Source: Glaucostegus cemiculus (taxonomy: Eukaryota). Taken from it: a stretch of DNA of 64,000 nucleotides. The notes under the pieces were generated by a model that saw only the letters and a list, made by a program, of their open reading frames with translations, ran no database searches and had not been told where the DNA came from. Location: assembly GCA_976551045.1 (NCBI GenBank), contig CDPCPM010000010.1, forward strand, positions 31,620,001-31,684,000. Direction: 5' to 3'. Position numbers and translations under genes: made by a program. Below are positions 18,101 to 64,000 of the stretch, piece after piece. Within the stretch, counting starts at the first letter, position 1. Each line of letters begins with the position of its first letter.

Positions 18101-19029
18101 TTATGTAAACCTCTATGTCCTGCAGGAGATACGTGGGGATCCGAACACCCTTAACCTGAGAATTAGGAATCCCACATTTAAACTCGCAGGATCATTCACT
18201 TTAATTCAAACACAGCCAAGGAAGCAGATCTTGCAACAGCACGAGATTTTCGGGATCAAAAGTGAGTCATGAATGAGCATTTCTGTAATTCAATTGGGAT
18301 TGTGGGGATCAGATTCCACCTGTACAGTGTGACCCTACTGCGGTATAGTTGTGGTCCAGTGGTGGTTAAGTTTCTGCATGAATAAACCTTGACATAGATT
18401 AAAAAATCTAGGGATTCAAGTTCAAGTGGAAATTTGGGATTTAAATTCAGTCAGTAATCTGCAATTAAAACTGAAACAGTTTATCTTAGTGATGATGGCC
18501 ACAATGCTGCTGGATTGTTATTAAAAACTCTCCGGTTCACTGAAGTTTGTCAAGGGGTGAAATCTGCCATCCTCAATTGGTCCGGCTGATGGGTCACTCT
18601 GGACACACAACGATGTGGTGACTGTTGAAAAGGCCCTGCAAGTCATTCTGGATAATGAGGGAAGGGAACCAGATTCTGTCCTTGCAAGTGGCATCCCCTT
18701 CCTGATAAAAAACCCTTTTTCAATACCAAGGGCAAGGTCTTTGTTCATTGCTTCTAAAATGGTCAACATGAGTAAAAATAGTTAATAATCTCACCGAGGC
18801 ATCTGCTACATGGAGAGTATTATGGTCTACTCACCAACACACTATATAGGATGGTGTTGTGTGAAATGGTTCTTTCACGGTCTGAAGGATCAAGGACTCT
18901 AAACACCAGTTTTATAGAGCAAAACCAATGTAATCACAAAGTCAAACACAGGGACAGAGTGAATGGGAACAGACACACTCACACAGGATACCACGGAAGT
19001 GAGAGAGGGATCACAACTGGGGTAGAATA

Positions 19030-19105
<76 letters not shown>

Positions 19106-22100: not shown

Positions 22101-23212
22101 TCAAAGAAGGGTCTTAACCCGAAGCGTTGACCGTCTGATTTTCTCCACGGATGCTGCCTGACCTGCTGAGTTCCTCCAGCACCTTGCTTTTTTGTAAGTT
22201 AAACTAACCAAGTTCTTTATCTAATAAAGGACCTGAGACAATTACTTCTGTACCATGCGCCTATCACACCGAGACGAGCAGGCAGCAACTCCGCAGGGGC
22301 TTGTAGCCTGTGACCAACTGCTCTGGTGTATAAATCACAGCGATGTCTGGAGAGATGCTTCCGGAAAGTCCGTCCGTAGAGCTGTTGTCTGTCCCCGTCT
22401 ATCATTCACCTGCTACTGATTTCCAACCCCACCCGCGCTCCCCTCGCCTACCTGCCTCCACCTGCCTGTCATCTACAGCCCTCCTCATTCCACTAATCGC
22501 CTCGGACTCCTTTCCCGCCTCTCCCTTTCTCTTCTCTGTACCAGCCACCTCTCCCCTCTCCACTCCCAGTCCTGATGCAGGGGTTCGACCCGAAACGTGG
22601 ACAGTTCCTTTCCTCCCACATATGCTGTTGTCCAGCTGAGGTCTTCCAGCAGATTGTTTGTCATTCAGGGCGATGATCCCAGTATCACAGCACCTGAGTT
22701 CCTGGACTGACAGTGGAGTCCGTTCACATCCGTTGCTACTTGGTGGGTGCATGGGGGTCCTGACATTTCAGGTCTCCGACTGCAAATTGGGGAGTGAAAG
22801 CTGCCTATCTGTGACTTGTTTTATTGTGTGATGGACATTACACATCAACTACCATATGGGTGTGACAGAGTGAGGATAAGGGGGTCCAAGGTGACCGGAG
22901 ACTAATCTCTGCTGCGTGGACGTTAACTCTCCCTCTCACACAGAGACACAGACACAGACACACACCCACACAGGTTCTCACATACAGGCGCTCAGACACA
23001 TACACACACTAGCACACCCTCACACACACAGACGCTCACACACACACATACACGCACACTCACAGGCTTCACACACACGCACACACACACACACACACAC
23101 ACACGCTGACACACACATACACGCACACGCTGACACACACGCGCGCTCACACACAAACACCCACATACACACGGACACATACATACACAGACTCGCACAC
23201 ACGTACATACAG

Positions 23213-23266
<54 letters not shown>

Positions 23267-26200
23267 AAGGTTCACCGGAACTCACCTATCCCCTGCCTGT
23301 GTGTGTTCCTCCTCTCCCCCACCTCCTTATTCTGGCTTCTGCCCTCTTCCTTTCCAGTCCTGATGAAGGGTCTCAGCCCGAAACGTCGACTGTTTATTTC
23401 CGTCCATAGATGCTGTCTGACCTCCATTGCTCCAGATTCCAGCATCTGCAGAACTTCTTGTGACTCCGTAAGGTTTGATAGCTCTGTTTGGGGTTGTTTC
23501 AGGAGGAGCATCACCTGAGGTGCTGTGCCGACGTCTGATTTAAAAAATATATATATCACGAGATTAAACCGTGTTGACGACCAACCTCCGATTAACAACC
23601 CTGGCCGAGCCGAGAGGAACCCCGACTAATTTTTCAGCGTGAATTAGGCATTGGATGCTGCTATAAATTCCGGCCTCGCCTGCGGCGAGGGTCGTCTCTC
23701 TCCCCTGTCCTCACGCCGCTCCTCCACCTGTGAATTTCTGTTACATCTCCCCCTCCTCACCTTCAACCCCAGCCGGGGGGAGGAGGGGATGATCTCTGCA
23801 CGGACCCCACCACACCACGGCACTGGCGCCTGCAAAGATCTGAACCCCTCAAATTCACCGACGTGGGCGGTTCAGTCCCCATACAGACAACCACTGGGCT
23901 GGTCACATCCGTGGTCTGAACGGCACTGACTCTCGCACCCTAACAGACAGATTCATCTCCCGGGCCGCGCTGGGCAGCCCCCGGGAGGTTTGATTTCATT
24001 CTGGGACATTCCAGGACTATCCGGAAGGGTTGACAACCCGAATGGGAACACACAGAAAATAAATCAACCTAATTAAACCCAAAAGATGTTATTTTTATAA
24101 ATATCTGATGTGGTTCGGTGTGGAATTCATACAAGATGTCATATTTTGAAATTTGATCAGCTGAAGAAAACTCAAAGAATGTTGATATTAATGTGTTTAA
24201 GATTTTTTGGCTCTTTTCTGTAACACGGCAAGTATAAAATTCTAGCATGTTCTTCCCTATCTCTCTGACACAGATTTATATCAACAGAGCTACACACTTT
24301 ATCGCTCGGGCACAGATCACAGCGAGCTTCACCTGATTTGTTTCCACATATATAATGTCTCGTACTTTAATGCTGCTTGGACCTGGCGTTCACATCACCT
24401 TCAAGAAAAGGAGAAGAAAGTGGCATCTGTAACATACTCACAGCCCATCAGTGTCAACAGGGCCGAGTTCGGGAATCGGCTGGTGACCTCAGTGAAACGC
24501 TTTAACGGCAAGGATTTCAGTGTGAGGATTGTCCCTGTGCTGTTCGAAGATGCCGGTGATTACTCGTGTTATCTGGGATCAAATCTATATCTGAACATTA
24601 CACTTATCACAGTTAAAGGTAGGTTGTTAAAGGACAATTAAAGACACAGATAGAGGACAGAAGGCTGTTGTCATTTTCAGTGGTAAAATCATTGTGTGAA
24701 ATGAAATGATTTTCTTGCTTCCACAGTCACAGCTGAGCCACCTGATGCAGTGACTGAGGGAGACACCGTCACCCTGACCTGCTCTGTGTCCGACGTCACT
24801 GAACCAATGAGACTGGTTTGGATCAATGGTGATGGCGAAATCGTGGGAGAAAAAATATTCAACGAACAAAGTCAGGAAAAGAAATCTTTCCAGCTGATTG
24901 TCCCGAAAACTGATGGTGTCCGGGGGAAATGGACGTGCTGTTTCCTTCATTACAACATTCCAAGATTTTTCATCTCACATTCCCTAAAGAACAGTAAGTG
25001 TCTCTCTTTTGCTTCTTCTCGCCTCCATCGAAAGTTACTTTCACTGTCTCGTCTCTCACTGGGATGACCTCCTGGCTTCAGGGACTCAGCATTGACGCTC
25101 AGTAGAGATCCTGAGTGCGGGTCGATCTTTATACCAGAGACAACCATTCATTCCTCGCACCGCAGTTCACATCACGTTACCAACAAGTTCCATATTTAGA
25201 AGGGTTCAGACCACAGTTTGGAAGCACACGGAATATTGCTCAGTGAAATTAACCACTCCTGACTCGGACACGCGGGGGTTAACTTTGAGTGTGGGTGACA
25301 ATGCCTTGTGACTGATAGCAGATCAGCCACCCATTTTGCATCTCTCCTGATTTGAGTTCAGAGTCAAATTTGAGCTCAGAGTAGTTCTGGCCTGGATTCT
25401 GCGGTACCGCTTGCCAGACGGCAGTGGGACAAATAGGTCGTGGGAGGGATGAGAAGGGTCGTCTATAATTCGATAAACCTTACCTGTGCAGGCACGTGTA
25501 AGGCCATCACAGGAACGGTAACATATTGGTTAGCACAATGCTTTCCAGCGCCAGCAACCCGGGTTCAATTCCGGCCACTGTCTGTAAGGAGTTCGTACGT
25601 TCTCCCCGTGTCTGTGTGGGTTTCCTCCGGGTGCTCCGGTTTCCTCCCAGATTCCAAAGACGTACGGGTTAGGAAGTTATGGGCATGCTATGCTGGCGAC
25701 GGAAGCGTGGCGACTCTTGCAGGCTGGCCCCTCCCCCCCCCCCCCCCCCGCGCCCATAAATCACTACGCAAAAGAAGTATTTCACTGCTTGTTTAGATGT
25801 ACATGTGACTAACAGAGATCTTATCTATTGCTACAGCCAGAACGACTGCAGGGATGGAGGGAAGGGTGGAGAAACCATTGCCGGTCATTTCAGAACATTT
25901 CCACCCAGTTCCATGGTGTGTGGGGTGGGAGGAGGGAGCCTTGACCGCCAACAACAGGGTCCTGAGCCGTGGGGTTGCGGCCACTAATTACATCAGTAAA
26001 TTGTGTTCCAAGCATGGAGAGAAAGTTAAAGACAAAAGACTAGAGACAACGTGACAGGTCAGTTTCAGAGGTCTGCTCCAAATTGCATCTGATATTCCTG
26101 ACCATGTCCAATGCCATGGGAGACTGGTCGGCAGAGTGTCCTGAGAAGGTCGTCAACCTGCTGCTCCGGGTTCCTGACATGCACTGAAGATGTGATAGTT

Positions 26201-26595
26201 GGTAGGTTAATTGTCTGTGAAGTGATCCTTGGAGGTGGGAGGCAGGAGAATCAGGTTTTCGTTGATGGGTAGATGAGAGGGAACAGGTTACAGGGATATA
26301 AACGGGGCAATGGGAATTAATGGGATTGTTCAGAGAGGCGTCGGAACTCCACGGAGTGTGTGAATGGCCTCCCATGTTGTAAGTAAATTGGAGAAAAGAT
26401 GGGAGGAAGAAACAGATGAAAATGTGAAAAATGTCCAGTTATTAAACAGGACGGAGAGCCCAGCTGAAAATACCAAATTTGTCTTTCACAGTGAGAACAT
26501 TTTCGGACATCTGGATCATCGCACTTCCGGGATACTTGTTGGTTAAACTGGCCGTTGCTCTGGGACTAACTTGCTATTCGTTGGGAATGAACTGA
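14680..26595 (+). CDS. Gene A: complete 6-coding-exon IgSF receptor (leader-V-C2-V-C2-TM with Lys, minimal tail), 471 aa, CD4/LAG-3/G6F-like architecture
   Basis: Exons 14680-14767, 17920-18261, 21496-21765, 24274-24618, 24727-24993, 26492-26595. All introns GT-AG and phase 1; joined length 1416 nt = 471 aa + TGA with no internal stop. Confidence 0.85.
15478..16515 (+). mobile_element. Penelope-like element 3-prime part (GIY-YIG endonuclease)
   Basis: [21 protein letters not shown]...PVATHFNS...[11 protein letters not shown]; terminal cctgatgaagggtct...gaaacgtcgac...ctgacctgctgagttcctccagca motif. Confidence 0.85.
17105..17505 (-). mobile_element. Rex1/Babar-type LINE 3-prime end
   Basis: [26 protein letters not shown] on the minus strand; ccaata-like tail repeats. 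Confidence 0.75.
17920..18261 (+). CDS. Gene A D1, V-like Ig domain without cysteines
   Basis: ttccaacag|GA acceptor, a|gtgagt donor; [34 protein letters not shown]...[22 protein letters not shown]...EIFGIK; three paralogous exons in the window. Confidence 0.88.
19031..19101. repeat. (CA)n microsatellite
   Basis: Perfect AC run of about 70 bp. Confidence 0.97.
21496..21765 (+). CDS. Gene A D2, C2-type Ig domain
   Basis: cacag|TT acceptor, g|gtaagt donor; GSDVTLSC...LQW...EDGKSYVC (B-strand Cys, C-strand Trp, F-strand Cys). Confidence 0.92.
22935..23263. repeat. Compound/imperfect (CA)n microsatellite
   Basis: Degenerate CA-rich tract ending in a perfect run. Confidence 0.95.
24274..24618 (+). 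CDS. Gene A D3, V-set Ig domain
   Basis: cacag|AT acceptor, g|gtaggt donor; [23 protein letters not shown]...WTW...FGNRL...[19 protein letters not shown] (canonical DxGxYxC). Confidence 0.93.
24727..24993 (+). CDS. Gene A D4, C2-type Ig domain with WxC F-strand
   Basis: ccacag|TC acceptor after a 108-bp intron, a|gtaagt donor; EGDTVTLTC...LVW...GKWTCC. Confidence 0.92.
25510..25825 (+). mobile_element. V-SINE
   Basis: B box ggttcaattcc; V-domain gggtttcctccgggtgctccggtttcctccc. Confidence 0.8.
26492..26595 (+). CDS. Gene A transmembrane/terminal exon
   Basis: gtctttcacag|TG acceptor in the required phase 1; translates [34 protein letters not shown]-stop. Too short for the ORF track; read manually. 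Confidence 0.78.
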
Positions 26596-28074
26596 GGAAG
26601 AATTTTCTTGGAATTTCAAGTAAATCATAAAGGTGACACTGGTATTGACACAGTGGGTGTTCATTCAACAGATATGAATTGCTAGCAATTTATATTTTAA
26701 AATGTTACTAAACTGTAAGGTATTATCAACTGATAAAAACATATGGACTAGGAGCAGGAGTCAGCCGTTTGTCCTTTAAGCCTGGTCTGCTATTCAGGGC
26801 GAACAGCTTTTATTCCAAAGTAACATTTCAACAGTCCCCTGTCTCAGCGCTGGTTATTTTACTTAACAAGGGCCACTTCCCTAGAGTGCTACACAGAAGA
26901 AAATCTGTGGAAGACAATGATGTGGATGTTGGGCCGAGTTCTTGATCTCCACACTGTCCACTGGGACATAGTTTTACAACTGTAGGGATTGACCGTGGCC
27001 CAGTGGTCCAGCCGTGTGAGGAGCTCGAAGAACCGTGACTGCGTGTCCTCAGTGACTGATCTCAGATGGAGCCTCCCTGCAGATACGCAGAATGGAACTG
27101 GGTTTTACAAATAGGAATGAATGAAAGTGAGCCCAGGTCTCCCCTCTCCCTCCCAGGACCAGTACACACCCTGAGAGAGCGGGATCTCAGGAGGGGGCGG
27201 CCTCTGTGCTCTCACTCAGCGAATTATTTACAGCCGAGCGCCAGTGACTGGAAGATTGCCAGAAAAAAAATCATCATGGATTATTGTTGTGAAAAACGCT
27301 TAATGCGAGAACAATTACACGAAAGGAGTGTTTTACTAACTTTCCGCGAGAATTGTTGAACGTCCCTGATGACTGCTTGCTTGGGAATTGTGATTGTGAT
27401 GAAGAAGCTGACCTACAATCAAATGGAAAAGTATTTGCTTTTATCGTTGAACTATTATTGTTGTACAGGCGATCAGGGACTTGAGCTTTTCCCTTCTCAC
27501 CCCGGTCACTGACCTGGCCATCTCATTGCTGAATCTGTGTTAAATGTACAACACTCAGTCAGTTAAGATAATTTATCATCTGACTAAATCATGTCTATCT
27601 TCTCCCTGCCTATGAACTGGTAATGTTAAATATTTCATTAAGTTGTATACCTACATACATTCTGAGTGGTAATAAAGGAATAATTTCTCATTCATGGTTT
27701 GCTCTGTTTTGTTTACTTGATGTATTAAATACACAAAGGCTTTTTTTTACATGTTAGAAGGTTTAAACCCAAAATCAAAGGGGGAAGTGAAATCTTCAAA
27801 GCTCGGCCTGCTTGGACCAAATCATAAAGATTAAACATCAGTACAACTGCTGCATAACTTGACTGATGCTGGAATGCTGGGGTGGGATGGATGGAGTGAT
27901 GCAGTATCAGTTTGAACGATCCCTCTCTCCTTTTCCAAACCCCTGAAGGCCGAAGGTCTAGTCTACTCATTCTGTCCTCAAACAGCAAACGCTCCACCCT
28001 GTTTTCAGGGTCATACCTCAATTACTGCAAAGGTATCCAACTCCAGGCTCTGTCTACTCTCTGCAGATCATTCA

Positions 28075-32559: not shown

Positions 32560-32898
32560 AAGAGTCCCTTGCTCTTTATGTCCCGGTAGGGAAAATGTCC
32601 ATCGTCCTGAATGGATCGGATATTCCCGCCGGTGGCACTGCTGTCTGGGAATGGAGACCACACCGGGGGCAGCCCAGCACAAAGGCGCTGGTCGAGGTGA
32701 AGGCGGAGGGACGCGGCTGGAGAGCAGAATGGCTCAGTGAAGGTCTGAAGAGCCACGGACCCAGGTGGCATCGGATCAACGACTCTCGCCACCTTACCAT
32801 CGAAAAGGCTGCTTTTGAAGCTGCCGGTCTGTTTATCATCAGACAGACGGAACCTGAGAGGAAAATACTGAAACAGTGTGAAATATTTCTCATCAAAG
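32560..32898 (+). CDS. Gene B D1, V-like Ig domain lacking the canonical disulfide
   Basis: gtcgcag|AA acceptor, g|gtaggt donor; EESLALYVPVGKMSIVLNG...VWEWRPHRGQ...FEAAGLFIIRQTEP...EIFLIK; homologous to D1 of A and C. Confidence 0.85.
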
Positions 32899-33921
32899 GT
32901 AGGTGGACGAAGAATAGTGAACTTGATCAGACATTACTATGTAATAATAAGGGTTTCGCATGTTGCTTCGGGCAATTCTGGAACGATTGTGAAAATTAAT
33001 TCAAAATATTTCACTGAAATATGTTCGATGATGACGAAGAAAGAAAATGTATTTTTCTCTAGCATTCTCCACTCATTCCCCGCCTCCCATATGCCCAGTG
33101 ACTGTGGATCAGACTGTCAGTGACTGTAAGGTGCTTCAATATTCTAAAGTTGAGAAATTCTGCATTCTCGCTGCTTCTTTAATCTACACTCTTGGTTTTG
33201 CCCACTTCCCCCTTCAGTTCAGACAGAGAAAATAACAGTTCTAATTTTAAAAACGTGAACCGATCTGGTTGTCTGTGTCTCTGTTCCATCTCACAGATGC
33301 TGCAATGGTTGTAGTCTGCAACTGTACTCAGCACGTGGTTATTGCTTCGGTCCCTCCCTGGCCTTGCCATTCCGACACAGACAGTGAAACTATCAGGTGG
33401 GCCGTGTTATTTTCAGCTGGATCTGGTCCGTGATGTTACTCCTGTGCCGAGATAATTCTTTCTCTGTCCAGTGAAGACTGACGGTATCAGGGAACCAGGA
33501 GATGGTACAGCTGAGGGTGTCATATAAAGTTGTACAGCACAAAAACAGGACGTTCAGTGCACCAAGTCTGCGCTAACCATCTAACAGGCATTTATATTAA
33601 TCCTGCACTAACTCCATTTTATTCTCCCCACATTTCATCAACTTTATAGGACAATTATCTCTCCATTACTGCTGATCACCTCCCTGACACCCTCCCTGTA
33701 ACCTCAATTACCTCCACCCTTTCTCACCCAACCAGGTCCCATGAACTGTGGTTTCTTTCCCATATCATGTTTATTCCTGTGTTGTACAGTATTCATCATT
33801 TCCAAAGGCTGGTAATGTTAAGTTATGAATGAGTAAATGAAGGTGAACCACCTCCTAGGGTAACAATTCCAAATCATTCCAGATTCTCTCATTACTTTAT
33901 TTCATTTCCTTTAACATACAG

Positions 33922-34191
33922 TCGAGTGGGATCCCCGGTATCAGTATCTGGGCAGTGATGTCACCCTCAGCTGTACCATCTCCAGGCTCCCTGACACCGT
34001 CAGCCTTCACTGGACAGAGAAAGAATCATCTCGGAACAAGAGGAACAACACAGACCAGATCCAGCTGAATAACACAGTCTATCTGATAGTCCGTGATGTC
34101 CAAACACAGGATAAGGAACGATATGCTTGTGAAATACAAGATTATGGAAGAACAGTCCTCACTGTTAACAATGAATTGTATCTCAATCTAT
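33922..34191 (+). CDS. Gene B D2, C2-type Ig domain (missed by the ORF track)
   Basis: atacag|TC acceptor, t|gtaagt donor, 270 nt like D2 of A and C; [31 protein letters not shown]...[25 protein letters not shown]. Confidence 0.9.
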
Positions 34192-49983: not shown

Positions 49984-50071
49984 ATGAGGCTGAGGTTTCT
50001 CTGCAGCAGTTTGCCCGCTGGTCTGATGTTCGGTTGCTTTGTTATTCTACTTCGGCCTGTTTCCACACGGG
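49984..50071 (+). CDS. Gene C leader exon
   Basis: tttcag acceptor ending 49971, ATG 49984; peptide identical to the gene A leader; g|gtaagt donor. Confidence 0.85.
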
Positions 50072-53000
50072 GTAAGTGCTTTCTCTCCACCCATAACCAC
50101 ACGTTGCTTTACTTTATCATTGTCCGTGTGAACTCACATCCCATTGTCACACTCGCTTTCCTCTCCAAGTCCCTGAATGTGCTGCGTCCTCACAAATCCA
50201 TGCCACCGTTGCTGGAGCGCCAGTTCTGTGCCCCTCCAGTCAGGATCCTCCCCTCCTACTGCACCGACACGGCTCTTACCACAGTCAGGAGTGACATCCC
50301 GTGAGCCTGGTGCAGAGGGAAGCTCTCCCTCCTCACCCTGCCCAGCCTGTCTGCAGCCTCTGACACGGTTGTCCACACCATCCTCCTCCAACATCTCCCC
50401 AACACAGTGCAGCCGGGTGGAACTGCCCTCGACTCATCGATCCAGTCGCGGCCCCAGAATCACCTGCACCCTCTCCACTTCCCCCTCCCGCACAGTTCCC
50501 TCCGGCTCCCTCCGACAAACTATCCCGGGACCCTCCTGTTTCCCATCCTCACGCTGCCCTTCGGTGACACCAACCGAAATTTGACCGCTGCTTCCACTCG
50601 TTCACGGTGGGCACCACCTCGACATCTCCACCCCCTCCCTCGGCCCCGCCACCGTCTCCAAATTCCCAGCATGAATGTGGGACGCCCGGTCCAGGATGAG
50701 CAGAAATCACACTCCCCCAGCCACACCCCCACCAACACCACCCCACCCACCCCCCACCAAACCAATCCCGTGAAGCCTTAACCCACTGTCGCCAGTCCCG
50801 TCACATCTCTCTCCCCGGCCACCGACTCTACCCGTCTCCCGCAACTGCCTGAGACTGACCAGACCGGTAGCAGCCACGGAATGTCAACACCTACAAAATT
50901 AGTGATAGCAGAGCTGGGATGAAGGAAATGTGTTTGAAATATTAATTCCTTCATTGTTCCTCTCTCCGACAGAAAACAGACATCAAATTTATTTCTTGCA
51001 TGAAGGAGAGGACGTTGTGTTAAAAGCACCAGCCAATCCTGGGAATGGCCCTGTTGTCTGGGAATGGAAACCCCACTCGGGGCAGGACATCCAGCGGTTG
51101 GCGACTTTCAGCAGACGGGACTGGGGAGAGTGGAGCGTACAGTGGAACTACGATTGGAGAAAGAGTGGCTGGTACCAGGAGCTGGGTGTGGAGAGTGGTA
51201 CTGTCAATCTGAGAATTAGCAGACCCACCTTTAAATTTGCGGGATTGTTCACTTTGACTCAAACACAGCCGAAGAAGCAAATTCTGAAACAATACGAGAT
51301 ATTTGGGATCAAAGGTGAGTGGCTCCGACAACGATCAATTATGTGTTTGTAGATATTTTCACGTAAAAAGATGAACGATACTGTGAACCGTGAGATTTCT
51401 TTCACCCAGGGAAGAGAGAATCTCCCATTAAAACAACCAGGGGAAAGATGCGTTAAGTCACGTCGTCGAATTTGTTGTCATACGCACCAGTAATTGTCTG
51501 CACAGGGGCAGTGATAAACGTGTTTGCAGCAGCATTACAGGCACATGGTACTGAGGTACAACTCTCAGCAGAGAAACACAAATTAAACATAAACTGTATA
51601 CAAAATGTGCAAGAAAGAAAACATTTAGGGCCCAAAGCAAATTTGAATGTGGTGCAAAATGGCCATAGTGTTACTGCACTGTGACAAGGATTAGGCGTTC
51701 TGAAACTAAATGGTTGAAGGGAAAATAGCTGTTCTTAAGCTGTTCTTGAACCTGGTGGTGTGGGACCTCAGGCTTCTCTACTTCCTGCCCACTATTAGCT
51801 GTTGATGTGTTGTGATGGTTGGCAAATTGAAACAGATCCAGGTCATCTCTGAGGCAGAAGTTGACTTGCACCATAATTAAACTTTCAAAGCACCTTATTA
51901 CAGTTGATGTAATCACTTCCAAACAGCAGTCATTCAGGCAGTTCACCATGCTCTTCTTGGGCACTGGTACAATCCATGTCTTTTTGAAGCAGCTGGGGAC
52001 CTCAGACAATAGAAATGAGAGTTTGAATATGTCCGTAACTACTTCAGCCCGTTTGTCCACACTGGTCATGTATGCCATCTGGACCAAACGCTTTACATGG
52101 GTTCATCCGCTTGACGTATGCCTGGATATTGAGACTGAGATTACAGAGTCATTGCAGGGATGTGGGTGTGTCATTGTTCTCCCTATCAAAGCACGCAATA
52201 AAAGGCATTGAGCTCATCGGGGAGTGATGGATCATTGTCACTCATGCCACCCAGTCTTACCTTGGAGGCAGTAATATTGTGCAGGCCCTGCCACAGCTGT
52301 AGAGCATCCATCTGTGAATTCAGTTTAGACTGAAATTGCCTCTTTGCACATACAATAGTCTTCCCAAAGTTGTACCTGGATTTCTTGTATGACTCCGGGT
52401 CACCAGCCCCAAACTCAACATATCAAGGCCTCAGCACTTTATGAATCTGCTGGTTCATCCAAGGCTTCCGATTAGGGAAGACTTGGAATGTTTATGTGGG
52501 TTTACACTCACCCTCACGCATCCTTCTGAATTCTGTGGCCACTGCAACATTTTCATTTAGGTCGACTAACAAATCCTCTACATGGTCCAGCCACTGACTT
52601 GAAGCTATCTTGAATTGTTCCAATGATTCTTGATCATTTCTTGTCAAATGGTTGACATAAGTAGAAGTAATTTGATTATTTCAACAGGAATTGCGAGCAA
52701 TGTACTGCACAGTGAGTATTATGGTCTGCTCACTGGCCCACTGGAATGTGGACTGAATCCTGTTGTGAAACCCTGAGATGATTTGTGGCAATAAACCTCA
52801 GCACAGAGGGCCAGGGGTGAGATAGGACAGTGACACTGCTGCTCAGTGTTGGTCGAGATCCCAGAGGAAGTCCATCGTCTGTGGAATTGTAACTCTGCCA
52901 GAGAGTTCACACCTTGAGGGGAGTTGGGGAGACGTATCAAGGAAAAAATAGAAAAAAAGATATCAAATTAGTTACATTTAAAACTCATTAGCCTTCATAA

Positions 53001-56000
53001 ATCAGATTCACACGGCTGAGTCTTGCAGGTTCCACCAGCAGTCCCGCGTGACTGTGAACAAGTTAAAGACTTCCATCCGCACGTTTCCGGGTGTGGAATT
53101 CCCTGATTTGCTGACAATTCAGGCAGGTGAATCTGCTGCGCTCTACAGGGAGTCCCGTGGTGGAACAGGAATACGCTGATATTCCCTGGCACTGACAGAG
53201 GGAACACTGCTGATGGATCCGGTGCCCGGTTGAAGCTGGTGCAGGATCCGCGAGGTAACTCGTTTCACTGGAGGATTTACAGCGGCGAGAAGCGCAGGGC
53301 GGAAAGAGGGAAGTGACACGGTTCTGTCTGTGTCCGTTTGCGATAATGCTTCTAATTATTAAAACATATTCATAAGTGTAATCATTTATCATTCATAATA
53401 ACCCATTAATTTTGGAAGTTATCTTAAGTGACCTCATTTTTAATGATTTTGCATAGTTAGTCCCTTTCAGAACCATTCCAGCAGTTTAAGAGCATTAACG
53501 GAGGGGAAACCTGGGGATGGGGCTTCACCTCCTGGAGATGATTCTCCACAGTTGTAGATGCAGGGCTGTTTCTGTCACACACCCCAGACCCAAGAATATC
53601 AGGCAAGCCCCCAGCACCAGACAAGGCGTCATCAACTGGCTTCAGGATGCTCTAGGCCAATGTTTCGCCTTATGAAACCAACCCAGGTGAATGCAGGACC
53701 CTGGGGAATCCGAACTGTGAGTGCGGGAGGTGCCGCCCTCAGCACAGCCCAGGCCAATACCGTCTGAACACCAGGGCTGGGGCTGAATTGCGACTATAGC
53801 GGGAGGCTGGGCAAGCTAGGACTTTATTCAATGGAGCACAGTCGATGGAGGGACCGTATAGAGGTGCATAAACCATGAGGGACATTGATAGGGAGAATAC
53901 ATACTGTCTATTTCTTAGAAAAGGGGAATAGATGCCTGCCACCAGCTCGTTCACTTTAAAACTATTTATTTAACTTGCCGTATTTAATTTAAACTTCCGT
54001 AGTTTTAGTGGTTTTTTTTGTTCAGTGTGTCTGTGTGTCTCTGCTGTTTGTTATTTAATGGGACGTGCATCTGAGGAGGACGGTATCTCGCTCCTACGCA
54101 TACTATGTATGTATATGGTTGCGACAATAAAACTGGTTCTGATTCTGATTCTAGAAAATAAAAACTAGTGGGCACAGGGTTAAAGTGAGAGGGAAAAGAT
54201 TTAAAAGCGACGTGAGGGCCAACTTCTTCAGCCTGGATGTGAAGCAGATGTGGAAGTGTTTGAGGCATGTGCATTGAAGCAGTTGATCAGGAAAGTCTCG
54301 AGGAATATGGGCTAAACGCGGGCAAATTGGACAAGCTCAGAGCGGCATTTTGGTCAGCATGGGTCGACTTCGGCCAAAGGGCCTCTGACACCGGAAAGTT
54401 AAGTTACTTCACACAGTCTGGGGTTTGGTTATTTCTTGCCGTGTTCCAGGAGGGACTGAAAGTCGTTTGGAGAACCAGCCTCTCCTGAAGAGCCGATCCT
54501 CACGGAGGCTCAATGATTGGAGCCCTGATCAGGTGCATTTTGGCAGCTCACTCATTTAAATAACTTCTGGGACTTAATGACCTGTAATGTGGGTTTTGTG
54601 CACAGGCTCCAGTGCATATGTCGGGTGGTGTTGCGGAAGTGAGCTGGCACATTGACCACAAAGTCGGACTGGTGCCTTCTCCAGGTCTAATAATGCAGCC
54701 GCTGCACTTCCAGTGCACACAGCTCTGGTGAGATTCCATCACCTGCCCACTGTGTTGTCAACAGCCACAAACACCCTGCAAGCCGTGTGTCCCTGAGTTG
54801 AACCCTGACAGTGCAGCAGGTGCAGGGGCTCTGCTCTGCCCCACTGACCCTGGTGAAGTCAGCTCACGAGAATCTGACCGAACTGTGTTATTCTATGTCT
54901 TGAATGCACATATGTGTCATCAGTCTGACTCACTCACTCAGCAGGGTAGAAGTGCTGATAATGGGCAGATCCTAAAGTCAATGTTGACCCAATCATTAGA
55001 CTTTTCACGTCACCACTCTGAATCTCGTTGGTCTGTTTCTCACAGTTGAGGCAAGTCCACAGCGGCCTGTGGTGGGCAGTGACGTCACCCTCAGCTGTAC
55101 CATCTCCAGACTCCTAGATACCGTCAGTCTTCAGTGGGAACCAAAGGACTCGTCCCAGCAGAACAGGAGGGATACTGATCAGATCCGCCTGAATAACACG
55201 GTCTATCTGATGGTCCGACACGTTACAGTGGAGGATGGGAAGTTGCATGTGTGTCAAGCGCGGGAAAACGGAGATATTGTACGCACAATAGAAGCAGATT
55301 TTACTGTTGGTACAGGTAAGTGTCACCAAACATTAGATACTAAAGAGGCACTTGCATCATCAGTGGTTCGTGTAATGTTGGGTGTGCGCCCCTTGGAAGT
55401 TTGTAATCCGTGATTAACTGCTGACCTGTATAAATTTCAGTATTACTGAGAGCGAGATCTCCATAAAGTGTCTTTGTGGAGCAGCTGCATGGTTGTCTCT
55501 GTGTGACAGCACAGGAAGGAGCGTCTTCTGTGATATTTGATCATTAAATTACCTTCGTTTGATGGTTTAACTTACCTTCAATCATCCAGTACCTCAGACT
55601 GAGATCCTGGTAAAGAATCATGTCAAAGTATTATCGAGAGAGTGGAGTCCCCACAACAAGCACCAGCACCTCCTGCTCACACCCAGCACTGGGGGTCAGG
55701 GTGCACACATCAGCTCTGAACAACAAGCCATCCTCTCTCCCTCACTCGCCCTTCCCGCCGAGTCCTGCTGCTGTTTGCAGTGATTCCAGCTGCTGCAGAC
55801 TCAGGCTTCAGACCAGCGCGCAGCTGGGAGCAGGACCAGGGGAAGAGGGAAGGGCAGGGAATCAGTAGGTGCGAATGGGAGAGGGATGGATGGGAAGAAC
55901 GGGAATAAAAGGAAGGTTGGGATGAGTTACGACGAGAGGAAGAAGGCAGCTGGTGGACGGAGGGAAGTGACAGACGTTGTGGGTGAGTGGGGGATGATGA

Positions 56001-59000
56001 TGGTAACATGCTGGGTCTGTGTGAGAGGGAGCGAGAGGGTCAGGAGACGTTCACTAACCTCACGGGGGATGTTGTTAAGATGCCAGACCCGCTCATTCTT
56101 CATGGCAAAACCCACCCCATGAAGATGCCCCTTCTGATTTGCCACTCCAGGAGAGTGTGTTCCCAGCGCCTTGTTCTGTAAGCTCGCCACCTCCTGCTCC
56201 TCATCTCTTGCTCAGTTCGGTCATGTCAGTGTCAGAACATCTGAGTCCCCGGGCGATGGTAGCAGCGCAGTGTTCAGTTCTGTCACTGACAGGGCCGTCC
56301 ATGCCGGTCCTGAGTCCAATTCCCTGGCTTCCTACCGAGGAGCTGGAATCGACCGCCCGAGACTTGTTAGAAAGTGCGAGGGCCGTTCCACGGCAGCTCC
56401 CACGCATTCGGATAAGAGGTTTTTTTTCTAAATGTGGTTGAGAATTTTTCCTCCTTCTCTCTGTCACTGAGCTGTTCTAAGATTCCATCGTGTTCTCCCG
56501 TCTCTGTGATACAGATTTATATTTCAAGAGTTACACCATTTATCGCTCCAGCGTAGATCACAGTGAACTCCACCTGATCTGCTATGATGAATATGTTAAC
56601 TCTAATGCTGTGTGGACCTGGCGCTCACGTCAGCATCAGGACCAGGAGAAAGAAATAGCGTCTGCCACAAGATATCAGCCCATCAGTGTCAGAAGGGCCG
56701 ACTTTGGGAATCGACTAGTGACCTCAGTGAATCGCTTCAATGGAAAGGATTTCAGTGTGAGGATTGTCCCGGTTTTGTTTGAAGACGCCGGAATTTACAA
56801 ATGTTCTCTGGGCTCATACACATTTCCGACCATTGATCTAATCACAGTGAAAGGTAGGAGAAAGGTTTTGTTGTTGCTTTTACCGATGAAGTCACTGTTC
56901 AAAATCTAAATAAACCGCTTGTTTCCACAGTCACAGCTGAACCACCTGATGCAGTGACTGAAGGAGACACCGTCACCCTGACCTGCTCTGTGTCTGACGT
57001 CACTGAACCAGTGAGACTGGTTTGCATCAATGGTGATGGTGAAACTGTTGGAGAAAAGTCACTGAGTGGGGAAGAGAAATCACTGAGTCTGATTGTTCAG
57101 AAAGCTGACAGAGGAGTAAGGAACTGGCGATGGGGTTTGTTTCAGCAAAACATGCTCCGGATTCTGGTCCCGTTCTATCAGGAGCCCAGTGGTAAGTGAC
57201 TCAGGGTTTGCTCTTCGTACTTGGAATCAGGATCACATTTTGATGTCACTTATTGTTCTATTTGCCTGCAGCGACCCCTCCTTTATATCCTGCATGGGTG
57301 GCTCTACCATGGGGCAGTGCCTGGGAATATGGAATAGGAAAGGGTTAGATAGATCTGAGGGCAGGATAAAATGCTGGCACAACATTGTGGGCTGAAGGGC
57401 CTGTACTGTACTGTAATGTTCTATGTTCTATGTTTATTGATCTATGTTCTAATATTAGGGGAACCTTCTTCACCCAGGGATTGGTCAGTACCTGGACTAC
57501 ACTGCCTGAAAGAGTGGTTGACAGCATTTAAGAAATGTGTAGATGAGAACTTGAATTGCCTGGGCACAGAGGGTGATAGACCAAGTGATGAGTGATGGAA
57601 TTAATGTAGAAGAGTGCACATGGGTCAGTGTGCATGTGTTGGGCCAAATGGTCTGTTACCATGCTGTATGATGCTATGATTCTCTGAATCATAACTAACA
57701 ATGTACTAAAGACAAATTATCCAAAGACCGTGACAATCAATCTTCTCTATGCCACTCATAATTTTATAAATCTTGATAAGGTCACCCTTCAGAAAGGAGT
57801 CCCAGCCTATGCAGCTCTCCTACTAACTCAAGACCTCTGTTCCTGGCAACATTCCTGTGAACATTTTCTGTACCATTTCTAGCTTAATCACATTCTTCCT
57901 GTAGTATGGTGACCAGAAATACACACCATATTCCAGTTGTGGTTTCATCAACATTTTGTCCAGCTGTAACATGACACCTTAACTCGTGTACTCAATGTTC
58001 CATTCAATGAAGGAGTAATGAACAACTTACTAAAGACAAATTCTCCGCAGTATTCCCAATGACACAGATCAGATTGAGAAGTTGTCTGATTTTTAACATT
58101 TTTGTTTCATTTCCTCGCAGCAAGTGGGAATTCTATTTACTTTTTCCATGAGGAAGGGAACTTCGTACTGAAGGGGCCGGACAATCCTGGAAATGGCCCC
58201 ATTGTCTTGGAATGGAGGCCACACAGAGGGCAACAAACCACAAAGCGATTGGCCACTCTTCGCAGAGAAGATCAGCGGTGGGCCGTAGAATGGAGTGACG
58301 AGTATAATAAAATGCCTGGCATTTCCCAGAAGATGCATATGGACTGGGGCACCCTTAAAGTGGGAATCAGGAAGCCCACCTTTGAACTCGCGGGACTGTT
58401 CAGCTGGACTCAGACACAGCCTGGTGTGACAATCCTGAGACAGTGGGAGGTATTTGGGATAAAAGGTAAGTTGATCAAGCAGTAGAAAGAATTTAAGTGT
58501 ATGATTATCTCTAACCATTTCTACAAATTCCTAACAGAATGTGAGGATTGTGTCCAATCATTTTGGTCTATAATCCAGCTCAAAATTAATCACTCATTTA
58601 AATCATCCCGGTGGGCAACATTCTTTTTTGCCATTTATTTTGGTCTGTTTGGTACAAACCTTGTTGCAGAGTTGGAGGTGATGGGGCCGAGTTCATGGTT
58701 AGAGCTGAGGGAGGTGGCTCTGCTCTCCCGAATATCTAACAGGAGGAAACTACAGCTCATCCGTGACAAAGTCTCAGATCTGGCAACTGGAATGACAGCA
58801 GAACTGTTCACGTTCAGCAATATCACTCATTGAAATTGACAGTAACTTTGAGATTTCCACACACATGCACGGCTTTATATACAAGTCTGAAGTTGCTGTC
58901 AGTGATACCCAGCTCTCCCATAGGGCAGACTCTTTTACACTCTTCCTCAGTGGGATCATGGGAAGTTAATGAACTGATGAAAATGTGTAGCATTTACAAA

Positions 59001-62000
59001 CTGCTCTCTCTGACAGGTGTAAGATGTGGATTCATCAAATTGTCATTTACATGCTAAGCCAAATTACTGCTCAGATTCCCCGACATAATAAAATATCAGA
59101 AATTGATGGAAAGACTCCGCAAGGCAAGCAGGAAGCATTCGTATCAGTTTCCTGTAAACACCAGTGAAAGAGAGAACTAAAGTAATGCAGGTGGCAGAGA
59201 AATGTTATTGAAACCTGAGGAATTTCTCTGACAGAATGAAGACATGTGGCAGGGCAGGCTTGGTAGCGTAGTGGTCAGTGTAACACAATTCTGGCTGCTG
59301 TCTGTAAGGAGCTTGTACATTCTCCCCATGACTGCTTGTGTTTCCTCTGGGTGCTCTGGTTTCCTCCCACATTCCAAAGATGTGCGGGTTAGGAAGTTGT
59401 GGGCATCCTATGTTGGTGCTGGAAGCTTGATTACACTTGTGGTCTGCCCCCAGAAGCCTCTATGCAAAAGATGCATTTCACTTTGTGTTTTGATGTACAT
59501 GTGAGTAACAAATATATCATATCTTATCTAAAAAGAAAAATGAGATAAGTTCAAGCTATTGTGGCTGTGCAATTTGTTGCTGGTGTGGTTCTGACCTACT
59601 GGTACACACACTGTATAGCGTGAGGATAATGAAAACAAGTAACTCAGACAGTAATGGTTCTTGTGTGGACAGAGAGAAAGAGCATATTTTCTACAGTTGG
59701 CAGACTGAATATTAAGTCCAAAAGGCTGCAACATGTCCAGAGTGAAGATGAGATGTTGTTCCCAGAGCTTGTGTTAGGTCTCCTGGTAACAGTGCAAGAG
59801 GCCACCATGGAGAGATCTGAGTGGGAGTGTGATGGGGAATTCACTGTTGTTGACTGTTTCTCTTTCCGCAGATGCTGCCTGAACTGATGAACTTTTCCAG
59901 CATTGTCTGTGTTTCAATTTTCTAGATTCTTCTTTTATATTTTATTTTGATCCCTCATCTAATACATTGACTTTATGCAAGAGGAATACAATTACCCCAG
60001 GTAAACAAATCAGGGCATAGAGCAGAAAAGAATATAAAGTAATTATGATTTAATTTTCAAAAATTATGCTTATATTTCAGCCACATCTATATTCTTAAGT
60101 TTGTGTTCCAATATATTGAACTCAGTAAACTCTTTGAAATATCAACATTAACTTTGTTTCCCCCATTTCATTTTCTGTCCGTGAGAAGTATTCAAAGTGA
60201 TAGTCAGCACAGCAACACAGTAACATCATATTTCCATCAGGTATCCCCTTAAACTGACCCGACACCAATTGACACTGGGAAAGTGAAATCTGGGATACAA
60301 AGAGGACTCTGTCCTTGTGGGCAGCTTTTTCATGTTCCAAAGTCAAATTTCTGTACTAGGCCATTGTTAGTCAAGAGATGGACGGCACATAGACCATGGG
60401 AGGTTTGAGAGAGGCATTGGGAAGCGGAGATGGTGCTGAGAACTTGCCTGTGGAAGCTGCTCAATTGTTTTGGATGATATTCTCAGGGTGCAGTGGGTAG
60501 ATGAGGGCCAAGGGGGACAGGTGGTCACTACCTGAAAGTGTTGATTACCATCACTGAGCATGGCTGGTCAGCATTCAGCCGACTGTCTGGTTGTGGGAAA
60601 AGGTCAGTACTGCCTGCAGCAGGTCAGGCAGCTTGTGGGGAACTGAACCACACGTCATATGTCTGTTTCCACAGTTGAGGTGGACTCACAGAGACCTGTG
60701 GTGGGCAGTGACATCACCCTCAGTTGCACCATCTCCAAACTCCCAGATGCAGTCGGTCTTCACTGGAAACCAAGAGGCTCATCTCAGCGGAACAGGAGCA
60801 GCAACACCGATCAGATCCACCTGAATAACACCGTCTATCTGATGGTCCGACACGTTGGAGCAGGAAATCCCAATCTGTACACATGGGAAGTGGAGGAAAA
60901 TGGCTCAGTTGTTCTCACTGGAGACACAAGTGTTGAAGTGGATCAGGGTGAGTCTAAAGCAGCCTTGCAGCAGGTATGAAATAGTTGCTGATATCAAACT
61001 GTTCCACATATTGTACAGTGAGCACAAACTCCACCATGGGCTTTCACTGCTGGATGTGGCCATTGCTTTTACCCTGGGCACAGGTGTAAATATAAAATGG
61101 TGGCACTGAGATTGAGGGAGTCACCCAGGTGAACCAATGGATTCAATTCAACTCAGCTGCAGAAATAAAAGGGAATAAATTCCATCAATGGAGAAAAGCA
61201 AATGGTCTTCTAGTCTATAATGGAAAAGGGACATTTTAATTAAAGATACAGATACCGGTGTTACAAGATTAGGGTCTTGGCTCAGGGATTCTTTTGGGTT
61301 GAGTGCTGGAGGTCACTCACTCCAATGATCTGAGTGTCTGATATTTTGGGGGTGTTTGCATCTTCCCAATTATGGTCATATCTCCCCTCTCCCTCTCCCT
61401 CTCCCTCTCCTTCTCCCTCTCTCTCTCCCCTTATTGCAATCTTCTATAAACAATTGTAATAGATAGAGGTGCTCAGTTCAATGATTGCTGACATGGTGTA
61501 ACAGATTGTCTAACATCACTTTGCTGGGGTCTGCATTTGGGGAAGATGGGCTTTGTCACACAGATGGCATTTGAACAATGGTCACCTGGGCCGTCAACCA
61601 GCGTATTCCAGCTCCCAGCCGACTTCCCTCTCCCAGTGAGGCCCTCCCTGCTGACATCCCAGGAACTGAGTGTTTGTCCCCGTGGAAACTCAGACACTCT
61701 GTGGATAGTCGTCTGTATCTCAACATCTATAAAAATCTAATTCTTTGTTCCCTGTCCCTCTCTTGCAGATTTACACAATAAGACATACACAGTTTATCGG
61801 TCAGACAGAGATCACAGTGAACTCGACCTGATTTGTGAGGCTTCTGCTGAGCTCACTGAAACCAAATGGACTTGGAGGTCACAGTTTGTCCAGAATCAAG
61901 AGACGGAAATAGGCTCTACTCACAGATCTGAGCCGATCGATGTTGACAGGAGCTACTTTGAAAATCGACTGGGAATCACAATGGCAAATGTGAATGGCAA

Positions 62001-63096
62001 GAATATCAGTGTTAGGATTGTTCCTGTTCGGTTTGAAGATGCCGGAGTTTACACATGTTCTACGGGATCATATAAACATGTGACCATTGAACTAATCACA
62101 GTCAGAGGTAGGAGACAGAATGTTGCAGCTTTTGATGACAGGTCATTGGGGAAGAGTTTCCACTTTCAATGCAGGCTGAGATCTCAGCACAAGTTTCCCC
62201 AAATACTTCCCCAATTTGAAAAGAGTTCCTTCTCCACCGGAACTGCTGCTCAAACTAATTTGCATTTTACTCGACAAAAGATTCACCTGGTGTTGAGGTT
62301 GTCCCAGTGGTTGGGGTGAAGGAGGCACCCAAAGGAGAACTGGTTGGTAAATAAATTAAAGGGTCCCTCCTGCATCCAGTTCCCATCACTGGTTTGGGAC
62401 CTGCTCAGGGAGGGTCCAATTAGTTAATGGAGTAGCATGTCTCACAAGGGGTTTGCAAACTTGCTGCAGCAGGACTGAGCTGTGGCCCCATGGATCACCA
62501 GCCCCAATGAAAATCCAGGCAGTGCATATCCACGTCCTCCGTGCGCAATGTGCTCGAGCACAGAGGGACCTGGGACAAAGCTGTGGTAACTTTTCTGAAA
62601 GTTTCACTCTAATCTTCTTAAAACCTGCCTTTAATTTCTTTTCACCCTGAAGTTCCAGTTTATTCTTGGAGCCACCTTGAAGCTTGAAAAGGATATCATT
62701 TCCAAAGTGATAGCAAAGGTTGTCCGTGATCCTTTGGGTTAGTTTGACAGACATCATGGTTTAAGAACACATTGGGTAGAAACTCCAGCTATTATTTTAA
62801 TTCTCAATGTATTTCTTCTTCCACAGCCACAGTTGAACCATCTGATGCAGTGACTGAGGGAGACAGTGTTACCCTGACCTGCTCTGTGTCTAAGGTCACC
62901 GAATCAATGAGACTTGTTTGGATCAATGGTGATGGCCAAATAGTGGGAGAAAAACTTTTGAGGGAGTCAAGGCAGGAAGATAAGTCTTTACAGCTGCTCA
63001 TTCCAAAAGCTGATGCAGACAAAAGGAAATGGACATGTGGTTTGTTTCACCAGAATACACTCAAGGTTTTCATTCCGAATTATCCAAAGAGGAATT
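49984..63096 (+). CDS. Gene C: IgSF receptor with leader plus at least 8 Ig domains, (V-C2-V-C2)x2; 3-prime end outside the window
   Basis: Exons 49984-50071, 50973-51314, 55046-55315, 56515-56853, 56931-57191, 58121-58465, 60675-60947, 61769-62107, 62827-63096; all GT-AG phase 1; 2527 nt open (842 codons + 1 nt). Confidence 0.78.
50973..51314 (+). CDS. Gene C D1 (Cys-less V-like domain)
   Basis: ccgacag|AA acceptor, g|gtgagt donor; ENRHQIYFLHEGEDVVLKAPANPGNGPVVWEWKP...FAGLFTLTQTQP...EIFGIK. Confidence 0.9.
51475..52630 (-). mobile_element. Rex1/Babar-type LINE, internally deleted
   Basis: DIFKLSF...VPSCFKKTWIVPVPKKS...LND...ITSTVIRCFESL RT N-terminal motifs. Confidence 0.72.
55046..55315 (+). 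CDS. Gene C D2 (C2-type Ig)
   Basis: cacag|TT, g|gtaagt; GSDVTLSC...LQW...EDGKLHVC. Confidence 0.92.
55930..56190 (-). mobile_element. RTE-clade LINE endonuclease fragment
   Basis: HGVGFAMK...ERLLTLSLPL...VTIIIPHSPT resembles the RTE APE motif GVGFAI...ERLMTLRLPL...SAYAPT. Confidence 0.68.
56515..56853 (+). CDS. Gene C D3 (V-set Ig)
   Basis: atacag|AT, g|gtagga; HSELHLIC...WTW...FEDAGIYKC. Confidence 0.93.
56931..57191 (+). CDS. Gene C D4 (C2-type Ig, Trp/Cys swapped)
   Basis: ccacag|TC after a 77-bp intron, g|gtaagt; EGDTVTLTC...LVC...NWRW. Confidence 0.88.
58121..58465 (+). CDS. Gene C D5 (second Cys-less D1-type domain)
   Basis: ttcctcgcag|CA, g|gtaagt; [34 protein letters not shown]...LAGLFSWTQTQP...EVFGIK. 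Confidence 0.88.
59250..59530 (+). mobile_element. V-SINE
   Basis: V-domain tttcctctgggtgctctggtttcctcccacattccaaaga; same 3-prime part as 25510-25825. Confidence 0.78.
60675..60947 (+). CDS. Gene C D6 (D2-type, F-strand Cys replaced by Trp)
   Basis: ccacag|TT, g|gtgagt; GSDITLSC...LHW...LNNTVYL...NLYTWE. Confidence 0.88.
61769..62107 (+). CDS. Gene C D7 (D3-type V-set Ig)
   Basis: cttgcag|AT, g|gtagga; DHSELDLIC...KWTW...FENRL...FEDAGVYTC. Confidence 0.92.
62827..63096 (+). CDS. Gene C D8 (D4-type C2 Ig with WxC)
   Basis: ccacag|CC, t|gtaagt; EGDSVTLTC...LVW...RKWTC. Confidence 0.9.
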
Positions 63097-63995: not shown

Positions 63996-64000
63996 AGTGG

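Follow-up and report, generated by a model that had tools for sequence, protein, structure and literature searches.

Siglec-5/14, LILR/PIR and KIR are mammalian paired receptors that are kept alike by gene conversion. In sharks and rays, little is known of receptors that are paired in an activating and an inhibitory form. The DICPs of ray-finned fish form clusters of two-domain units with ITIM, charged-transmembrane and ambiguous forms, and they include a doubled form, D1a-D2a-D1b-D2b, the second half of which is largely monophyletic (10.1101/2021.06.11.448072). G6f-like (G6fL) is a teleost thrombocyte receptor (PMC3528668), and CD4 and LAG-3 have been described in the shark (PMC10768021).

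Gene C of the ray Glaucostegus cemiculus begins within a 64,000-nucleotide stretch of DNA (the window) and contains eight Ig domains, D1 to D8, in two four-domain blocks. With a probability of about three in four, judged from sequence, it encodes a type I membrane protein whose eight Ig domains stem from an ancient four-domain doubling, and which is likely a member of a family of paired activating/inhibitory leukocyte receptors. The demonstrated part of this reading comprises the exon chain, the intact frame, the fact that block 2 arose once, ahead of the divergence of sharks and rays, and the separation of ITIM from lysine-transmembrane forms. Literature searches found no description of the family, and searches of 10 supplementary files of PMC10768021 and one of PMC3964593 gave no match.

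Comparison with described receptors

The nearest named matches among those looked up are coelacanth CD4 and CD4-1/LAG-3 (E ~2e-12) and sturgeon LAG-3 (1e-9), and a PDB search similarly returned LAG-3 chains (E ~4e-4). The ray family shares with CD4 and LAG-3 the V-C2-V-C2 block, a WxC motif in D4 (here also in D8), the use of one exon per domain and an origin in which a set of exons was duplicated in tandem. However, WxC is found in D2 and D4 of CD4/LAG-3, whereas across 23 eight-domain genes it is present in D4 (21/23) and D8 (22/23) and in neither D2 nor D6 (0/23 each). The ray family also differs in its cysteine-free D1 and D5, its eight domains, its multigene cluster and its charged-transmembrane forms, and it forms a separate clade in the tree. 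The LCK-binding motif of CD4, Cx(C/H), is absent from gene C and occurs in 1/100 tails of relatives, an odd one, and CD4 membership was rejected on this motif. LAG-3 membership was rejected on the FPAL motif (0/100 tails; a loose (F/Y)xxL(D/E) pattern matched three), and the tail is encoded by one exon in LAG-3 but by four in gene C. The family, which is unnamed, is distantly like CD4 and LAG-3.

The ray cluster adjoins an ARAP3-like gene and not the conserved CD4/LAG-3 locus. With 148/359 flank ORFs scanned, only RhoGAP/PH exons gave clear matches and the other flank held no clear gene. TPI1 is a marker of the CD4/LAG-3 locus; none of 57 TPI-like matches lies on the contig of the ray family, and the marker is uninformative because of its many copies.

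G6fL resembles the family in its four Ig domains and YxN motif (PMC3528668), the latter being present in gene C and in 40/100 tails, and g6f-like clusters are among the nearest models (TM 0.39-0.45). In contrast to G6fL, the ray family is multigene and paired, and membership was rejected since a cytoplasmic ITAM is found in 0/100 tails. None of the looked-up homologs is named g6f-like. The likeness to the DICPs lies in clustered receptors, mixed signalling forms and a doubled form with a largely monophyletic second half. DICP D1 carries C23, C104 and DICP-specific cysteines, whereas none of the 23 eight-domain genes has a conserved cysteine in D1 or D5, which argues against a DICP identity. 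DICPs are also MHC-linked; 0/38 MHC class I matches fall on the 42-Mb contig of the ray family (C10), which is one of 1511 contigs in the assembly. The name DICP is absent from 64 matches of a cyprinid relative and from 29 looked-up representatives.

The MDIRs of the clearnose skate are likewise multigene activating/inhibitory Ig receptors of a cartilaginous fish, but they are described as resembling CD300/TREM/pIgR (PMC3031540). No CD300/TREM/pIgR match was returned by the PDB and Atlas searches, and no homolog is named MDIR. Siglec-5/14, LILR/PIR and KIR serve as a working analogy only: they combine near-identical outer domains with opposite signalling ends, as gene C and its neighbour X3 may do.

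Structure of gene C

Gene C lies on the forward strand and consists, in genomic DNA, of a single open frame of 967 amino acids in 14 exons, every intron being GT-AG. The chain contains a leader exon, eight phase-1 Ig exons, a transmembrane exon and four tail exons. The leader (49984..50071, ATG at 49984, phase 1) is near-identical to those of genes A and X3. D1 (50973..51314), a V-type head without cysteine, is the most variable domain and shares 94-98% DNA identity with X3. It is followed by D2 (55046..55315), a C2-type domain with two cysteines that lacks WxC, and by the V-set domain D3 (56515..56853), where a conversion-like tract begins (56411-57333, 95.8% identity with X3). D4 (56931..57191) is C2-type, with a tryptophan in place of the F-strand cysteine in both gene C and X3.

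After an intron of exactly 929 bp (57192..58120, phase 1, GT/AG) the second block opens with D5 (58121..58465), V-type and again without cysteine, a domain that forms a single clade in sharks and rays. D6 (60675..60947) is C2-type and lacks the F-strand cysteine, the second cysteine not being conserved in the 23 genes; D7 (61769..62107) is V-set and D8 (62827..63096) is C2-type with WxC. All are open and in phase 1, so that the exon order and compatible phase read in the original prediction are borne out. Pfam assigns V-set to D3 and D7 and Ig to D2, D4, D6 and D8, mostly below curated cut-offs, and gives no match for D1 or D5. The structure of the gene C D5 is extrapolated from P0007, a paralogous protein of the sawfish, whose D5 is V-set in the Atlas model (TM 0.71-0.76). 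The V-C2-V-C2 ectodomain is thus present twice, by Pfam for D2-D4 and D6-D8 and by this model for D5.

The intron after D8 (2683 bp, from 63097) leaves the window past 64000. As had been expected, the membrane anchor lies outside, and extending the sequence placed it 1.8-5.8 kb past the edge: a transmembrane exon (L001:1780-1887), the helix of which has an arginine within its N-terminal third, then four tail exons (L001:2924-3022, 4438-4494, 5504-5547 and 5684-5752) and a stop, all on the same strand. The tail contains YxN, one ITIM-like IxYxxI and a terminal motif in which cysteine replaces tyrosine.

The D4-D5 intron had been described as mostly LINE-end debris devoid of leader or transmembrane exons, which agrees with the present searches. 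At least one other copy within 464 kb covers 79% of its length, and it contains two LINE-end remnants in opposite orientation, presumably CR1. A short-word search with four leader and eight transmembrane/tail queries gave no exon-like match in it (the best, E 0.016, lies in another gene and none is listed for gene C), and AATAAA is absent from the 929 bp. Block 2 is also no assembly duplicate, as already argued from its divergence: within-gene identity between blocks averages 45% (D1/D5), 59%, 53% and 60% over the 23 eight-domain genes.

Origin of the second block

The relatives comprise 133 chondrichthyan proteins, most of them automatic gene models, in addition to 11 local models. The D1-D8 order is present in 26 of the 133, from 16 species, and the local cluster contains four eight-domain genes, each without leader or transmembrane exon between D4 and D5. 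Block 2 of sharks and rays forms one clade (support 100/99), within which gene C has a one-to-one sawfish ortholog. In the concatenated tree with bony-fish outgroups it is sister to block 1 (SH-aLRT 97). The AU test rejects a recent doubling, whether placed within gene C or within rays (p ~1e-7 and 1e-13). The doubling of the four-domain block is ancient and family-wide, occurred once before the shark-ray split and is not special to gene C. The intact frame, together with orthologs in both sharks and rays, upholds the proposal of one (V-C2-V-C2)x2 receptor.

The original prediction had offered fusion or internal duplication. The trees favour the latter, which is the likely and best-fitting origin; fusion with a G12-like donor is still compatible (p 0.42) and we consider it fairly unlikely. 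In such a fusion two older tandem paralogs were joined, the upstream gene losing its transmembrane segment and tail and the downstream, G12-like gene its leader, with function unchanged from the main explanation. A block 2 plus G12 clade lowers the log-likelihood by 2.5, quick single-domain trees place D6 and D7 weakly with the G12 lineage (SH-aLRT 85 and 89), heads of that lineage lean weakly to D5 (13-22 bits), and a fusion route has already been proposed for four-domain DICPs (10.1101/2021.06.11.448072). The concatenated trees, however, hold the two blocks together with G12 outside (89/91, one chimaera row unresolved; 97). Nor was a stand-alone gene with a leader and true D5 found among the 133 proteins and 11 local models, and none of the four local D4-D5 introns retains a leader or transmembrane relic.

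Internal duplication would have proceeded by unequal crossing-over between phase-1 introns, and the same process would still add or remove four-exon units. Four-domain mosaics of the types 1-2-3-8 (five), 1-2-7-8 (two) and 1-6-7-8 (one) are the pattern expected from in-register loss of four exons. Within the window, on the forward strand, gene A (14680..26604) is a four-domain paralog of the D1-D2-D3-D8 type with a lysine transmembrane segment and short tail, and gene B (32560..34191) is a D1-D2 remnant of the G6 lineage. Other members have 4, 12 or 15-16 domains.

Signalling forms and the outer domains

A transmembrane segment is present in 100 relatives. Of these, 65 carry an ITIM-like motif, 22 a transmembrane lysine and five the arginine of the gene C type; in none of the 100 does an ITIM-like tail occur with either charged residue. 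Both ITIM-tailed and charged types are present in the local ray cluster, which thus contains the related ectodomains, with an ITIM tail or with a charged transmembrane segment and short tail, that define a paired cluster. ITIM members would recruit SHP-type phosphatases and lysine members would pair with a DAP12-type adaptor.

Two different binding heads had been predicted, with a possible splice from leader to D5. No leader lies directly before a true D5 among the 133 relatives, no such isoform is found among their gene models, and D5 is less variable than D1 (72% against 52% identity among local paralogs), so that two heads are unsupported. A receptor in which variable D1 and conserved D5 both bind ligand is distinctly unlikely. 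The predicted V-set fold of D5 in P0007 despite its lack of cysteines, the higher shark-ray identity of D5 (67%) than of D1 (49%) and the retention of block 2 in 16 species speak for it; against it, four-domain genes of the 1-2-3-4 type without D5 are common (23 rows) and model P0051 skips D5. The dN/dS ratio stays under 1 in each of the eight domains (0.37-0.64), and D5 has a lower dS than D1 with an equal ratio (0.39 and 0.37), which makes no case for positive selection on D1 or stronger constraint on D5. The uniformity of D5 among paralogs instead tracks dS and points to homogenisation. In the preferred reading ligand specificity would reside in the outer block, in its D1 and D3, and block 2 would be a homogenised inner arm raising the head off the membrane.

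X3, the ITIM-bearing neighbour, shares converted head exons with gene C. Their dS is 0.02-0.04 in D1, D3 and D4 but 0.33 in D5 and 0.45 in D8, and the near-identical tracts end sharply. Gene C differs from X3 in its transmembrane arginine and missing last tyrosine; the sawfish ortholog P0031 lacks the arginine and retains both ITIM-like motifs. It is close to an even question whether gene conversion gave gene C nearly the head of X3, the arginine and lost tyrosine making it a twin that either inhibits weakly or activates. The missing D4 cysteine and terminal tyrosine, the latter replaced by cysteine, would also be compatible with decay, as would the charge inside the membrane segment. A decaying copy with a still open frame that no longer works as a receptor is nevertheless highly unlikely, as 14/14 exons keep an open frame and canonical splice sites, five proteins of manta and stingray have the same arginine, the D4 change is common to gene C and X3, and block 2 has its one-to-one sawfish ortholog. 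That the blocks are two separate genes whose phases happen to agree and which gene prediction has merged in error is extremely unlikely: the gene C junction is read from genomic DNA and the database model P0005 (order 1-3-8-1-2-...) resembles a merger, but in all four local genes block 1 lacks a transmembrane exon and block 2 a leader, the D1-D8 order is unchanged in 16 species, and nurse shark record AGQ17915.1, which has no contig and which we take to be a cDNA, covers the D4-D5 junction.

Four-domain relatives occur in bony fish (sturgeon, eel and zebrafish) and chimaeras also hold family members; the zebrafish relative is shorter and is named si:ch73-7i4.3 in carp records. As one joint and tentative proposal, which we lean against, an undescribed branch of CD4/LAG-3/G6fL-type V-C2-V-C2 receptors may have become a KIR/LILR-like paired system of cartilaginous fishes, in which a cysteine-free D1 would read a self ligand that is polymorphic, MHC for example, receptor size would change by four exons at a time, and gene C would be the activating twin of X3 by gene conversion. 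The doubling has precedent in CD4 and the DICPs and is to that extent less surprising. It repeats the proposed exon-set duplication of CD4/LAG-3 one level up, with a unit that would be added and removed in register. For searches for shark CD4-like genes, the family is CD4-shaped yet not CD4. It provides a defined cluster in which both signalling types occur, together with orthologs from at least 16 species and a zebrafish relative open to functional tests.

The eight-domain frame of gene C

Gene C, which runs past the end of the window (C10:31620001–31684000), forms a single frame of 967 amino acids with no internal stops, made up of a leader (exon 49984–50071), domains D1–D8, a transmembrane (TM) exon and four tail exons. 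A second set of D1- to D4-type exons begins 929 bp past the D4 exon (56931–57191), at 58121–58465 (D5), 60675–60947 (D6), 61769–62107 (D7) and 62827–63096 (D8). All five exons are in phase 1 with GT-AG ends, bearing out the compatible phase claimed in the original prediction. The TM exon expected beyond position 64000 was located, with the four tail exons, 1.8–5.8 kb past the window end, and the frame stays open.

The D4–D5 intron of gene C, 79% of whose 929 bp is matched elsewhere in the region, contains two LINE-end remnants of opposed orientation, presumably CR1. A search of it gave no leader-like exon, TM-like exon or AATAAA, in agreement with its earlier description as LINE-end debris, and none of the four D4–D5 introns of X1, X2, X3 and C (0.9–5.4 kb) holds a leader or TM. 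The nurse shark record AGQ17915.1 ('obscurin-like', without a contig), assumed to be a cDNA, crosses the D4–D5 junction. Among the local paralogs dN/dS is below 1 in every domain, which fits translation of the second block. The eight-domain gene is a real feature, broader than was first held and less unusual as an event in one gene.

The surrounding cluster

The 464 kb around the window contain four eight-domain genes (X1, X2, X3 and C), six four-domain genes (G2, G4, G5, G6, A and G12) and two remnants (G3 and B). Genome-wide searches with D7 and D5 gave at least 15 matches each, and all matches listed lie inside the cluster. Its nearest identified neighbour is an ARAP3-like gene (E 6e-27), with RhoGAP and PH exons on the reverse strand (flanking stretches L038:9687–9998 and L040:2155–5313), about 20–35 kb past the leader of G12, the last gene of the cluster. 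None of 38 MHC class I matches lies on this contig, C10. Triosephosphate-isomerase-like exons gave 57 matches, with many intron-bearing copies, on at least 16 contigs (e.g. C154, C565, C386, C621, C75, C32, C3 and C31), reflecting either an unusual amplification or an artefact of the assembly.

Several further features of the cluster were observed. Gene B (window 32560–34191) is a D1–D2 remnant of G6 whose intron holds an inverted D2 fragment (33389–33519, reverse strand); a short D4-like scrap lies downstream (40125–40190). A broken D3–D4 remnant, with a stop within D3 and a frame break within D4, is followed by an orphan leader exon (G000:C10:31423319–31427257, L027). Downstream of X1 lie two lysine-TM exons that differ from each other (G000:C10:31397112 and 31401340–31403060; L030, L029), the second accompanied by a tail exon; these are either alternative ends or a relic gene. 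The G6 lineage (G000:C10:31506208–31525315, L019–L017) is a divergent gene of four domains that is retained as far as sharks and chimaera; its tail exons are repeated, and each carries a tyrosine motif.

Age and route of the doubling

Two homology searches gave 133 proteins, from cartilaginous fishes throughout and almost all labelled 'uncharacterized'. Profile scoring assigns the order D1–D8 to 26 of these, drawn from 16 species of shark and ray; as 18 of the 26 were also in the profile training set, the trees serve as the independent check. A tree built from 109 domains of D1 type unites true D5 of sharks and rays in a single clade (40 rows, 96/96), and in a D1–D3 concatenation (46 rows) block 2 (D5–D8) is likewise one clade (100/99); block 1 (D1–D4) there joins the four-domain genes of the main line (94/96), with the lineages of G12 and G6 outside. 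The window genes cluster mostly with sawfish orthologs, which marks the genome as that of a batoid.

Doubling within gene C was rejected by AU testing over 26 rows (p 9e-8), and so was doubling within the rays (p 1e-13). With the trees, these rejections place the doubling before the shark–ray split, some 250–300 million years ago. The proposed doubling of gene C stands, but as an old event shared across the family. Fusion, with block 2 akin to G12, is the less likely route: that topology passes the AU test (p 0.42), and the best topology joins block 1 with block 2 (p 0.65). A quick tree with bony fish, CD4 and LAG-3, which has long branches, also makes the blocks sisters (SH-aLRT 97) and sets the family apart from CD4/LAG-3. 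Internal duplication is favoured from these sequence comparisons.

No true D5 directly follows a leader among the 133 relatives' models and the local models; the only model that opens with true D5 starts mid-domain. Four-domain mosaics of order 1-2-3-8 (n=5, A and G5 of the local cluster among them), 1-2-7-8 (n=2) and 1-6-7-8 (n=1) fit in-register loss of four exons. The D3–D8 intron of gene A is 108 bp, so D4–D7 are really missing there; part of the database mosaics could be annotation skips.

Longer models have 12 domains (Heptranchias) or 15–16 (Scyliorhinus and Mustelus), with repeats such as 2-3-4-5. Block repeats of independent origin occur in P0058, P0060 and P0097: those of the G12 lineage, from Heterodontus and Chiloscyllium, carry a second head closely related to the first, and in a chimaera model D4 is followed by a D1-type domain. 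A full-library search turned up relatives with four domains, identical at about 30% of positions, in bichir, sturgeon, bowfin, eel, tarpon, cyprinids, a salmonid and pike; 29 of its 150 matches were looked up, and of these the closest named proteins are coelacanth CD4 and sturgeon LAG-3. The eel relatives P0137 and P0143 carry repeated D1-D2-D3 units, multiplied separately in the teleosts; P0137, which has internal TM stretches, may be merged genes. P0198 (named as lamprey) and the similar P0206 (E 3e-21 and 1e-18) combine multiple V-C2 domains with WxC and tyrosine tails and are possible jawless-fish relatives.

Signalling motifs and a proposed role for the second block

Of the 100 relatives that have a TM, an ITIM-like motif occurs in 65, a TM lysine in 22, an arginine at gene C's TM position in five and YxN in 40; no lysine-TM or gene-C-arginine member has an ITIM-like motif, and neither ITAM nor FPAL occurs in the 100 tails. 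Locally, ITIM-like tails occur in X2, X3 and G4, and a lysine TM in X1, G2, A and G12. Gene C is intermediate: its TM has the arginine, and its tail has YxN, a single ITIM-like motif and a Cys replacing the terminal Tyr. It is 93–100% identical to X3 in the leader region, D1 and the D3–D4 tract, compared with mostly 70–89% in other introns and 82–87% in D5. We read this as patchy gene conversion, in either direction, by which C and X3 have probably become a pair. The sawfish ortholog, in which the arginine is missing and both motifs are retained, speaks against this; gene C is possibly decaying instead. The leader exon and next intron are 95–100% identical in A (window 14616–15196), C (49920–50500) and X3 (in L008), genes that differ elsewhere.

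Comparison drew on excerpts of PMC10768021, 10.1101/2021.06.11.448072, PMC6238376, PMC3964593, PMC6795676, PMC3528668 and PMC3031540; a term search of PMC11372145 gave nothing relevant. The family resembles CD4/LAG-3 in shape but lacks tested features of CD4, LAG-3 (FPAL), G6fL (an ITAM) and DICP (conserved D1 cysteines). Like DICPs and NITRs as defined in those excerpts, it divides between ITIM-like tails and charged TMs, and by analogy would act as DICP/NITR/LILR-type paired receptors; established knowledge suggests adaptor and phosphatase coupling. Neither the family nor its eight-domain form is described in the literature searched, mostly at title level and outside subscription papers and the original DICP, MDIR and G6fL-discovery papers. 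Venkatesh 2014, according to passages in two other papers, reported several CD4/LAG3-like molecules, probably described in a supplement, and may already have noticed the family.

Neither D1 nor D5 has a conserved cysteine, and D6 lacks its second cysteine; D5 of relative P0007 is nevertheless modelled as a V-set. Across 23 eight-domain genes mean identity is 52% for D1 and 72% for D5 (shark versus ray, 49% and 67%). By crude counting over six non-independent pairs of four local paralogs, dN/dS is 0.37 (D1) and 0.39 (D5), and dS 0.84 and 0.27. Selection on D1 and D5 thus appears not to differ measurably. D5 might be a conserved second site; because its dS is lower at near-equal dN/dS, block 2 looks homogenised between paralogs, with old lineages persisting in D1 and D3. 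Two different D1-type binding heads are unsupported, D5 being the more uniform and never following a leader. Specificity would reside in the outer block, and block 2 would serve as an inner arm.
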